Source: a virus (lineage: Duplodnaviria; Heunggongvirae; Uroviricota; Caudoviricetes). From it: 41,128 bases of DNA. Positions within the stretch are counted from its first letter, which is position 1, and each line of letters opens with the position of its first letter. The notes below the pieces were generated by a model, which was not told where the DNA came from, made no database searches, and was given only the letters and a program-made list of their open reading frames with translations. The DNA lies in the IMG/VR virus record IMGVR_UViG_2718217884_000003, positions 1 to 41,128 of that record, one strand, 5' to 3'. The translations under genes were made by a program, and so were the position numbers. This document shows positions 8,326 to 41,128 of the stretch, piece after piece.

Positions 8326-8402
8326 GTTGACCTCAACTTATTTCGATTCTCCATCACCCTTAATCCGCCGCCCCATGTGTTTGTTGTGATCCGTTGCTGG
8401 CC

Positions 8403-9119
<717 letters not shown>

Positions 9120-9126
9120 TTAAATC

Positions 9127-9192
9127 TATCACCGCAAGGGATAAATATCTAACACCGTGCGTGTTGACTATTTTACCTCTAGCGGTGATAAT
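9127..9192. promoter_or_regulatory. OR3 (9127..9143), OR2 (9150..9166), OR1 (9174..9190) with divergent pRM/pR
   Basis: Operator sequences match canonical lambda OR3 and OR2; OR1 matches except one base; pR -35 TTGACT (9164..9169), -10 GATAAT (9187..9192). Confidence 0.9.
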
Positions 9193-9207
9193 GGTTGCAT
9201 GTACTAA

Positions 9208-9417
<210 letters not shown>

Positions 9418-9424
9418 GTAACAC

Positions 9425-9470
9425 CGCTCTTTTCACAATGGACATTCGTCCTACGTCGCTGACAAAGCGA
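9425..9470 (+). promoter_or_regulatory. nutR (boxA-like CGCTCTT, boxB hairpin TCGCTGACAAAGCGA)
   Basis: boxA-like motif at 9425..9431 and boxB stem-loop at 9456..9470 with the same loop as nutL. Confidence 0.55.
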
Positions 9471-9554
9471 GCCCCAAGATATCTGACCAACTAAGGCCAT
9501 ATGCGTTTCCACGCATACCTTTCAACTAACTATTCACTATTGGAAAATTAACAA

Positions 9555-9851
9555 ATGACACAAGCAAGTTACAGCAAGCCAACACAGCGAGAAATTGATC
9601 GCGCAGAAACAGATTTACTCATCAACCTGTCAACGCTTACCCAGCGCGGTCTGGCAAAGATGATTGGCTGTCATGAATCGAAGATAAGCAGAACGGACTG
9701 GAGATTTATTGCTTCGGTCTTGTGTGCTTTCGGAATGGCATCAGACATCAGTCCGATTAGCAGGGCTTTTAAGTATGCATTGGATGAAATCACAAAGAAA
9801 AAATCCCCGGCTGCCACCGAGGATTTTAAGCAAATTGATATGCAATTCTGA
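9555..9851 (+). CDS. cII: CII-like transcriptional activator
   Basis: 98-aa ORF; HTH segment and C-terminus (KKKSPAATEDFKQIDMQF) resemble lambda CII; position between cro and the O-like gene. Confidence 0.75.
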   Translation: MTQASYSKPTQREIDRAETDLLINLSTLTQRGLAKMIGCHESKISRTDWRFIASVLCAFGMASDISPISRAFKYALDEITKKKSPAATEDFKQIDMQF

Positions 9852-9883
9852 GGGAATTACTGGATCAATCCACAGGGGTAATT

Positions 9884-10045
9884 ATGACAAAACGTCGTAA
9901 GAAATACCAGGAAAAAGAAGAGATTCGACACCCTGATTCACCTGAGGGATTAGTGGTAGCCGCAGCAAATAACAGGGCGTTCGCAGAGCGCCTTGTTGGT
10001 GTTTACAGACTAGCCAAAGCAGGAGTGAAACATGGGCGTCGTTAA
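9884..10045 (+). CDS. Possible small basic ORF between cII and the replication gene
   Basis: 53-aa ORF found manually (MTKRRKKYQEKEEIRHPDSPEG...); weak RBS; overlaps O-like start by 14 nt. Confidence 0.25.
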   Translation: MTKRRKKYQEKEEIRHPDSPEGLVVAAANNRAFAERLVGVYRLAKAGVKHGRR

Positions 10046-10853
10046 GTTAGCTGATTACAGGCCTCAACTGGAGGTCGTGGAGCATCGCGTGGCAGATACC
10101 GAAGATGGTTTCATGCGCGTTGCTAACGAGATTACCGACAGTCTGCTGATGGCTGATTTAACCGTCCGGCAGATGAAGGTGATGCTCGCTATCATGCGCA
10201 AGACATACGGATTCAATAAGCCGATGGATCGACTCACAAACACGCAGATAGCAGCCATGACAGGTATTCATCACACTCATGTTTGCGCTGCCAAGCGCCA
10301 GCTTATTGAGCGTAAATTCCTCATTGCTGATGGCGTGAAAATCGGAGTGAACAAGGTGGTTTCTCAGTGGATTAGCCAGGACAGCTTAACATTAGCTAAA
10401 ACAGCTAATAAAACATTAGCCAAGTCGGCTAATGGGTATAAGCCAAGTCAGCTAAACACAAAAGACAATATACAAAAGACAATAAATACAAATACCCCCT
10501 TACCCCCTAACGGGGGCGGCGATGGGCAGGTTAAACCTGAACGTCGCAAGGCAGAACGAATCGACTACGAATCCTTCCTGAACGCCTACAACACCGAAGT
10601 CGGTGACAGACTTCCTCATGCTGTTGCGGTCAACGAGAAACGCAAACGCCGCCTGAAGAAAATCATCCCGCAACTGAAAACGCCAAACGTGGACGGTTTC
10701 AGAGCGTATGTCAGGGCGTTTGTGCATCAGGCCAAGCCGTTTTACTTCGGAGACAACGACACGGGCTGGACAGCTGATTTTGATTACCTGCTGAGGGAAG
10801 ATTCGTTAACGGGAGTTCGGGAAGGGAAGTTTGCAGACAGGGGGATTGCATGA
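10032..10853 (+). CDS. Replication initiator, phage O-like N-terminal domain (P22 gp18-type)
   Basis: N-terminal region ([35 protein letters not shown]) typical of the O N-terminal domain; RBS AGGAG; stop overlaps helicase start. Confidence 0.8.
10370..10495. repeat. Candidate replication origin: iteron-like repeats plus A/T-rich tract inside the O-like gene
   Basis: Recurring TTAGC-containing units (acattagc x2, gccaagtc x2) then direct repeat acaaaagacaata x2 in an A-rich tract; analogous to lambda ori inside O. Confidence 0.45.
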
Positions 10854-12226
10854 AACAGGATATCGAAGCGAGCGTTATCGGTGGCCTGCTGATTGGTGGA
10901 TTAACACCAACTGCCAGTGACGTTCTGGCAACGCTGGAGCCGGAAGCGTTTTCAATTCCGCTCTACCGGAAAGCCTTCGAGGTTATCCGGAAGCAGGCGA
11001 GAAACAGAAACCTAATCGACGCGCTGATGGTTGCCGAGGCGTGCGGAGAGGAGCATTTCACGTCAATCCTGATGACCAGCAAAAACTGCCCGAGTGCCGC
11101 AAACCTGAAGGGATATGCCGGAATGGTCGCGGATAACTATCACCGCCGTCTGGTGCTGGAAATCATGGATGAAATGCGTGAACCAATTCAGAGCGGAACC
11201 ATCGATACATCGAGTCAGGCGATGGACGAGCTTGTAAAGCGTCTCTCAGCCATCAGAAAGCCCCGTGACGAGGTAAAACCTGTACGGTTAGGGGAAATCA
11301 TTACTGACTACACTGACACGCTTGACAGGCGTCTGAGGAACGGAGAAGAGTCAGATACCCTGAAGACCGGAATCGAAGAACTTGATGCCATCACCGGAGG
11401 GATGAACGCGGAAGACCTGGTGATAATCGCTGCTCGTCCTGGTATGGGGAAAACCGAACTGGCGCTGAAGATTGCCGAAGGCGTTGCAAGCCGCGTTATT
11501 CCTGGTTCTGACGTCCGACGCGGGGTATTGATTTTCTCAATGGAAATGAGCGCATTGCAGATTGCAGAGCGAAGCATTGCCAACGCCGGGAGGATGTCGG
11601 TTAGCGTACTGCGAAATCCTGCATCGATGGATGACGAAGGCTGGGCGCGTGTTGCTAACGGCATGAGTCAGCTTGCAGATTTGGATGTATGGGTAGTCGA
11701 TGCCTCGCGGTTATCGGTCGAAGAAATACGCTCAATCGCAGAACGACACAAACAGGAAAATCCAAACCTGTCACTCATCATGGCGGATTATCTTGGCCTG
11801 ATTGAGAAGCCGAAAGCAGACCGCAACGACCTCGCAATTGCTCACATCTCAGGAAGCCTGAAGGCGATGGCGAAAGACCTGAAAACACCGGTTATTTCCC
11901 TGAGTCAGCTTTCACGCGATGTTGAGAAGCGACCAAACAAACGCCCGACAAACGCAGATTTGCGTGATTCAGGAAGCATTGAACAGGACGCAGACTCAAT
12001 CATCATGCTCTATCGGGAAGCTGTATATGACGAGAACAGTAGCGCCGCGCCATTTGCTGAAATCATTGTGACGAAAAACCGTTTTGGCTCACTTGGTACG
12101 GTTTACCAGCGGTTCTGCAACGGACACTTTGTTGCATGTGACCAGGATGAAGCCAGACAGATTTGCACAGCATCAAATGCACCTGCTGCGCGTGGCAGAC
12201 GATATGCACAAGGGGCTGACGTATGA
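10850..12226 (+). CDS. Replicative DNA helicase, DnaB family (P22 gp12-type)
   Basis: 458-aa ORF with Walker A ARPGMGKT and the conserved DnaB C-terminal domain. Confidence 0.9.
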
Positions 12227-12251
12227 CCATCTACATCACTGAGCTAATAAC

Positions 12252-12284
12252 AGGCCTGCTGGTAATCGCAGGCCTTTTTATTTG
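12252..12284 (+). terminator. Rho-independent terminator (tR2-like)
   Basis: 8-bp stem AGGCCTGC / GCAGGCCT with loop, followed by TTTTTATTT; between helicase and ninB. Confidence 0.7.
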
Positions 12285-39955: not shown

Positions 39956-41128
39956 TTGCTGTTGAAACGCCGTCTTATTATTGCTGCTTCTTTGTTCGTT
40001 TTTAACTTATCGTCTGGTTTTGCGGCGGAAAACATTCCTTTTTCACCTCAGCCTCCAGAGATTCATGCCGGGTCCTGGGTATTGATGGATTACACCACCG
40101 GTCAGATCCTCACCGCGGGTAATGAGCATCAACAGCGCAATCCCGCCAGCCTGACAAAGCTGATGACGGGTTATGTCGTGGATCGCGCTATCGATAGTCA
40201 TCGCATTACGCCAGACGATATTGTCACCGTGGGGCGCGATGCGTGGGCGAAAGATAATCCGGTGTTTGTCGGTTCTTCACTGATGTTTTTGAAAGAGGGC
40301 GATCGCGTATCGGTACGTGATTTAAGCCGTGGTTTAATTGTGGATTCCGGAAATGACGCTTGTGTTGCTCTGGCTGACTATATTGCCGGTGGGCAACGGC
40401 AGTTTGTTGAAATGATGAACAACTATGCCGAGAAGCTGCATCTCAAGGATACGCATTTTGAAACAGTGCATGGTCTGGATGCACCTGGCCAGCATAGCTC
40501 GGCTTATGATTTAGCTGTGCTTTCTCGTGCTATCATCCACGGCGAGCCCGAGTTTTATCATATGTACAGTGAGAAAAGCCTCACCTGGAACGGTATCACC
40601 CAGCAAAACCGTAACGGGTTATTGTGGGATAAGACCATGAATGTTGACGGCCTGAAAACGGGCCATACTTCTGGTGCCGGGTTTAATCTTATTGCTTCGG
40701 CTGTAGACGGGCAGCGTCGCCTCATTGCAGTGGTAATGGGTGCTGACAGCGCAAAAGGTCGTGAGGAAGAGGCAAAAAAATTACTGCGTTGGGGGCAACA
40801 AAACTTTACTACGGTGCAAATTTTGCACCGTAGGAAAAAGGTCGGTACGGAACGCATCTGGTATGGTGATAAAGAAAATATCGCCCTGGGAACGGAACAA
40901 GAGTTCTGGATGGTGCTACCGAAAGCCGAAATTCCACATATCAAAGCCAAATATACCCTTGATGGTAAAGAACTCACCGCGCCAATTAGCGCCCATCAGC
41001 GGGTAGGGGAAATTGAACTTTACGACCGTGATAAACAGGTGGCGCACTGGCCGCTGGTTACCCTGGAATCTGTCGGGGAAGGCAGCATGTTTTCTCGCCT
41101 GAGTGATTATTTCCACCATAAGGCCTGA
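39956..41128 (+). CDS. dacD: D-alanyl-D-alanine carboxypeptidase DacD (PBP6b), host chromosomal gene
   Basis: Signal peptide then PBP5/6 family motifs (SLTK, SGN, KTG); TTG start at 39956 or 39962; stop at window end. Confidence 0.9.
   Translation: MLLKRRLIIAASLFVFNLSSGFAAENIPFSPQPPEIHAGSWVLMDYTTGQILTAGNEHQQRNPASLTKLMTGYVVDRAIDSHRITPDDIVTVGRDAWAKDNPVFVGSSLMFLKEGDRVSVRDLSRGLIVDSGNDACVALADYIAGGQRQFVEMMNNYAEKLHLKDTHFETVHGLDAPGQHSSAYDLAVLSRAIIHGEPEFYHMYSEKSLTWNGITQQNRNGLLWDKTMNVDGLKTGHTSGAGFNLIASAVDGQRRLIAVVMGADSAKGREEEAKKLLRWGQQNFTTVQILHRRKKVGTERIWYGDKENIALGTEQEFWMVLPKAEIPHIKAKYTLDGKELTAPISAHQRVGEIELYDRDKQVAHWPLVTLESVGEGSMFSRLSDYFHHKA

Follow-up and report, generated by a model that had tools for sequence, protein, structure and literature searches.

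Operators, promoters and regulators at the locus

The window, by which we mean the whole 41,128-nucleotide stretch of DNA analysed, contains an immunity region in which divergent cI and cro genes enclose a three-part right operator (OR) and a three-part left operator (OL) lies on the far side of cI. The features on which the analysis turns are as follows.

6829-6889, no strand: OL1 (6829-6845), OL2 (6853-6869) and OL3 (6873-6889), all identical to lambda (operator scan and alignment)
8403-9116, minus strand: cI repressor gene, 237 amino acids, 235 of 237 identical to lambda CI (protein comparison)
9123-9151, minus strand: promoter pRM, -10 at 9123-9128 and -35 at 9146-9151, identical to lambda (coordinates transferred from the mEp234 annotation, sequence identity by alignment)
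9127-9143, no strand: OR3, identical to lambda (operator scan and alignment)
9150-9166, no strand: OR2, identical to lambda (alignment)
9164-9192, plus strand: promoter pR, -35 TTGACT at 9164-9169, 17-bp spacer, -10 GATAAT at 9187-9192 (hexamer scan, 10 of 12 matches)
9174-9190, no strand: OR1, 17-bp CI/Cro operator, HK97-type allele TACCTCTAGCGGTGATA (alignment; the homologous mEp234, HK542 and CL707 records annotate oR1)
9181, plus strand: variant base A (G in lambda), OR1 position 8, innermost base pair of the non-consensus half-site, -18 in the pR spacer (alignment; half-site according to PMC2194778; -18 by counting from the hexamers)
9217-9417, plus strand: cro gene, 66 amino acids, 65 of 66 identical to lambda Cro, K39N (protein comparison)

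Alignment with the lambda reference J02459 pairs OR1 of the window (9174-9190, plus strand, TACCTCTAGCGGTGATA) with lambda 37998-38014 (TACCTCTGGCGGTGATA) and places the G to A difference at window 9181, equivalent to lambda 38005 and to position 8 of OR1. The site is a 17-bp pseudo-symmetric sequence sharing 16 of its 17 bases with lambda OR1, the consensus half TATCACCGC being fully identical, and over the 141 bp of OR that were aligned only two bases differ, this one and one in cI codon 3. An earlier note on this DNA had claimed a single-base OR1 difference, A for G at 9181, amid OR3, OR2 and OL1-3 sites identical to those of lambda, together with one or two substitutions in CI and Cro, and had named alignment to J02459 as the check; that alignment confirms the OR1 base, all five other sites are the same as in lambda, and the protein counts (CI 235/237, Cro 65/66) agree with the note. 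Four operator-like matches were found in the window, against 0.02 expected by chance.

OR1 overlaps the pR spacer and -10 hexamer, while OR2 and OR3 stand at lambda spacing between the divergent cI and cro genes. OL1 begins 2345 bp before OR1 (2407 bp in lambda), which sets the three-part OL at the distance of 2.3-2.4 kb needed for OL-OR looping. Mapping from the mEp234 annotation puts the probable pR start near 9199 and the leaderless cI start at 9116. Near the left operator the window departs from lambda at 6824 and 6826, between the putative start of pL (about 6820) and its -10 hexamer (6827-6832); both substitutions lie outside OL1 and are common to HK97 and mEp234.

The two CI substitutions are T3A and K71N counting from Met1, corresponding to T2A and K70N in the mature protein. 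The Lys3-Lys4-Lys5 arm (KKK motif) is intact in the window; these three lysines are the reported DNA contacts of the arm, and Thr2 is not among them. The codon of the Cro substitution K39N occupies window 9331-9333; this is a common natural allele, found in 30 of 117 IMG/VR loci, and its neighbour Arg38 is presumably a DNA-contacting residue. Identities of 235/237 and 65/66 argue for CI and Cro proteins of lambda specificity. Operator layout, promoters, OL and both proteins thus have the defining features of the lambda immunity group, of which the window is, as judged from its sequence, a member.

The prophage that carries the cassette

Between 8300 and 9500 the window shows 100% nucleotide identity to HK97, with mEp234 and HK106 at 99.7%. 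The window is nevertheless not HK97 itself, a possibility that we rejected since only about 9.6 kb can be aligned to that phage, chiefly the immunity and replication region, 5658-12254, at 98.9% identity. To this is joined a myovirus-like late module similar to Citrobacter phage Omnitron and SEN34-type phages; among the complete E. coli genomes of the collection, none matches the late region at more than about 97%. The window ends within host dacD (39956-41128). From its sequence, then, it is a mosaic prophage integrated beside dacD and carrying the HK97 version of the lambda immunity cassette. Its integration means that lysogeny was achieved by a phage with this operator.

A prophage of the same build occupies the same site in E. 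coli CUPF09 with a different repressor/cro cassette, which indicates that the immunity module has been swapped. In the interval from OL to cI, which rexB and rexA occupy in lambda (window 7073-8325), one open reading frame matches HK97 gp48 (7073-7723), a second of 135 amino acids (7711-8118) overlaps the HK97 gp49 region, and a hydrophobic frame of 51 amino acids (8170-8325, minus strand) lies just downstream of cI; other lambda-immunity phages have hicAB or other genes between OL and cI.

Natural distribution of the position 8 alleles

Adenine at OR1 position 8 is found in eight named phages (HK97, mEp234, HK106, CL707, PhiR5_2, HK542, HK244 and mEp332), and guanine in lambda, HK544, SfI, ev243, E26-Berryhill and ev099. 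A scan of IMG/VR over OR1 and its flanks gave 47 A against 29 G, and a shorter OR1 pattern gave at least 88 A, at least 42 G and at least 10 T among the matches listed. Anchoring the scan on OR2, which leaves the allele count unbiased for OR1, yielded 117 loci, 84 with A and 33 with G; across these 117 loci variation within OR1 is confined to position 8, the other 16 positions being invariant. Reference lambda therefore carries the minority form among wild lambda-immunity phages and prophages, and the window the common one. In 5,426 complete E. coli genomes, an exact 41-mer of the A form occurs in at least 87 and that of the G form in at least 122, these counts being lower bounds because an exact match misses loci with nearby variants.

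That position 8 should be the sole naturally varying position fits weak constraint on this base, and agrees with the biochemical energy map of the operator. The T-allele loci in IMG/VR (at least 10) keep the OR1 core but are clearly divergent in OR2, OR3 and the cro flanks, so that position 8 has three alleles (A, G and T) across related immunity groups. Variation is also seen just outside OR1: at pR discriminator positions -6 and -5, equivalent to window 9193-9194, G is replaced by A in 21 and 29 of the 117 IMG/VR loci, and HK542, HK244 and mEp332 likewise have A at the two bases just after the pR -10 hexamer, where the window has the lambda form. Such changes could outweigh the OR1 base in their effect on pR.

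The OR1 allele is associated with the residue at CI position 2, the 117 loci dividing into A/Ala 83, G/Thr 17, G/Ala 16 and A/Thr 1. Strict co-variation of the OR1 allele with CI T2A was rejected, as all four combinations exist, and no more than about 70 bp separate the OR1 base from cI codon 3, so physical linkage alone is enough to account for the association. Cro K39N occurs with the A allele in 29 of the 117 loci and with the G allele in one, and the full haplotype of the window (OR1 A; CI T2A and K70N; Cro K39N) is present in 28.

A scan of GTDB representative genomes gave 24 matches, all with G, which we discarded as a guide to how frequent the alleles are in nature because they are attributable to laboratory lambda cI857 ind1 DNA or vector contamination in non-enteric assemblies. 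These lambda pR/OR1 matches lie in unrelated species, among them Enterococcus, Marinobacter, Shewanella, Desulfovibrio piger, Helicobacter cinaedi and Mycobacterium parascrofulaceum; most of the 24 encode CI A67T and E118K (that is, cI857 ind1), and in several cro diverges past residue 23, as at a vector junction. They look like commercial lambda DNA, or contamination by lambda-derived vectors, in published assemblies. The phage record MW057783.1, 'Campylobacter phage CJLB-4' (48,361 bp), is 97.6% identical to lambda over cI-cro and has the exact lambda OR1 41-mer at lambda-like coordinates; despite the Campylobacter host given for it, its genome looks to be of lambda type.

Effect on the switch and relation to known systems

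The substitution data of Sarai and Takeda (1989), as far as they are tabulated in PMC2194778 (Table 3), assign a cost to CI of +0.4 kcal/mol for changing the equivalent G10-C32 base pair to A-T, +0.5 for T and +0.2 for C, on a scale that runs from -0.2 to 3.7 kcal/mol for the operator substitutions given there. The value for A was obtained by filter binding at low temperature with lambda CI, not with the T2A/K70N protein, and corresponds to an approximately two-fold change in Kd, among the smallest costs tabulated for the operator. Within the non-consensus half, G10 is the base pair that lies innermost, and on this half the CI arm is unresolved in the 1LMB crystal structure (PMC2194778). Of the substitutions at this position, only G32T and not G32A is represented among the pR mutants of Lagator et al. 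(2017, PMC5481185), whose measurements were left aside since the rows of the data file are numbered differently from the list of mutants. A three-site occupancy model, run with assumed affinity parameters, returned at most 1.9-fold more pR-open fraction for the A allele and a rise of about 1.5-fold in the CI dimer required for half repression, OR1 still being the strongest site.

Counted from the hexamers at 9164-9169 and 9187-9192, window 9181 is also position -18 of pR. Sigma-70 promoters prefer T>A>C>G at -18, a preference sensed through R451 of sigma-70, and G to A at this position increased the activity of other promoters to an extent that depended on the promoter (Singh et al. 2011, PMC3130263). 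The A allele might consequently make pR, which is strong already, slightly stronger.

Taken together, the distribution of the allele and its small tabulated cost suggest, with a probability that we put at roughly 0.87, that OR1 A is a standing natural HK97-type allele of the lambda immunity cassette, near-neutral in effect and not a new mutation. Under this reading the position 8 substitution would cost CI about 0.4 kcal/mol, or some two-fold in Kd, and OR1 would stay the strongest CI site at OR, with cooperative OR1-OR2 binding still repressing pR. With OR1 still strongest and repression cooperative, the switch should work essentially as in lambda. Adenine at -18 would combine a slightly stronger pR with slightly weaker repression, for an expected net shift of less than about two-fold. 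A small quantitative shift of the switch is possible, and the set-point of induction could be displaced to a measurable extent by the two-fold change at OR1 acting together with Cro K39N and any -18 effect; the magnitude in vivo, like the pR and Cro effects of the A allele, is one that we infer.

It is unlikely, in our estimation, that the A allele is instead a functional tuning variant, co-adapted with CI T2A/K70N and Cro K39N to give the switch a different set-point (for instance through easier induction or a stronger pR) and maintained by selection in wild populations together with the G form. The A and G forms are both frequent in nature, Ala stands at CI residue 2 in 83 of the 84 A-allele loci in which that residue is readable, Cro K39N keeps company almost exclusively with the A allele, and the CI effect would add up with a -18 change of the kind that raised activity at other promoters, all of which such tuning would lead one to expect. 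The association with CI residue 2, however, is explained by linkage over about 70 bp and is broken by the occurrence of all four combinations, Thr2 is not a DNA-contacting arm residue, and the three possible position 8 substitutions each cost no more than 0.5 kcal/mol in the tabulated data, which fits neutrality. A more ambitious form of this idea, to which we give slightly less credence still, is that the position 8/pR -18 polymorphism (A and G, with T in relatives further removed) serves under selection as a 'set-point dial', both forms kept by balancing selection and possibly co-adapted with Cro K39N. Were that so, A would slightly lower CI affinity and slightly raise pR, and laboratory lambda, with its minority G, would be harder to induce than the majority of wild lambda-immunity prophages.

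An operator-constitutive mutation of the virulence type, destabilising lysogeny, is very improbable. The base does sit in the highest-affinity CI site and overlaps pR, but a lambda vir-type OR1 mutation would be expected to bring a large loss of CI affinity, whereas the measured cost here is only +0.4 kcal/mol against up to 3.7 in the data tabulated in PMC2194778. Carriers of such a mutation, moreover, would be expected to fail to maintain stable lysogeny or to grow on immune lysogens; as read from genome sequences, at least 87 complete E. coli genomes have the A allele as prophage DNA, as does the window, whose prophage has an intact cI, and many temperate phages that carry it have an immunity region of lambda type annotated in GenBank. 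A sequencing or assembly error in the window, for which nothing specific speaks beyond the difference being a single base, is barely credible given the same base in independent sequences of many phages and genomes.

We therefore return to the standing natural allele as the preferred reading. The earlier note was right to place the base in a CI/Cro site overlapping pR; its further suggestion, that this base could alter the stability of the switch, is not supported where it implies a notable, destabilising deviation, since this is the HK97 and majority allele, at the sole varying position of OR1, at a cost of +0.4 kcal/mol and in an integrated prophage. An altered or unstable switch marked by OR1 A is accordingly not supported. 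The allele is also already known, having been public since deposition of the HK97 genome (AF069529) and being present in EF120456-EF120461 as well. It is of little import for discovery, its one use being as a reminder that reference lambda is atypical at OR1 position 8; switch models parameterised on lambda OR1 may be off by about 0.4 kcal/mol, on the tabulated value, for most wild relatives.

Compared with lambda itself, OR1 of the window has the same place in a three-part operator, with the same pR and pRM hexamers, the same OR2, OR3 and OL1-3, and CI and Cro proteins that are 99% identical. Apart from the one OR1 base, the two differ in the genes between OL and cI, where relatives of HK97 gp48 and gp49 stand in for rexA and rexB, and in N and cII, which are HK97-type alleles in the window. 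The sequence identity to lambda, and the 'immunity region' annotation in the records of phages with the same allele, suggest that the prophage would be homoimmune with lambda.

HK544, mEp332, HK244, HK542, CL707, mEp234 and HK106 are reportedly the wild lambda-immunity phages of Degnan et al. 2007. In the records of the wild lambda-immunity phages (EF120455-EF120461) the operators are annotated explicitly, and six of the seven, all but HK544, share the OR1 A allele. Their operators are otherwise almost identical, the exceptions being mEp332 (one base in OR2 and several in OL) and CL707 (one base in OR3); they differ from the window in the N and cII flanking alleles and in the genes between OL and cI. 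The closest counterpart is the immunity region of HK97 (AF069529/NC_002167), which shares with the window OR1 A, CI T2A/K70N and Cro K39N, while the rest of the two genomes differs, the late region of the window being myovirus-like.
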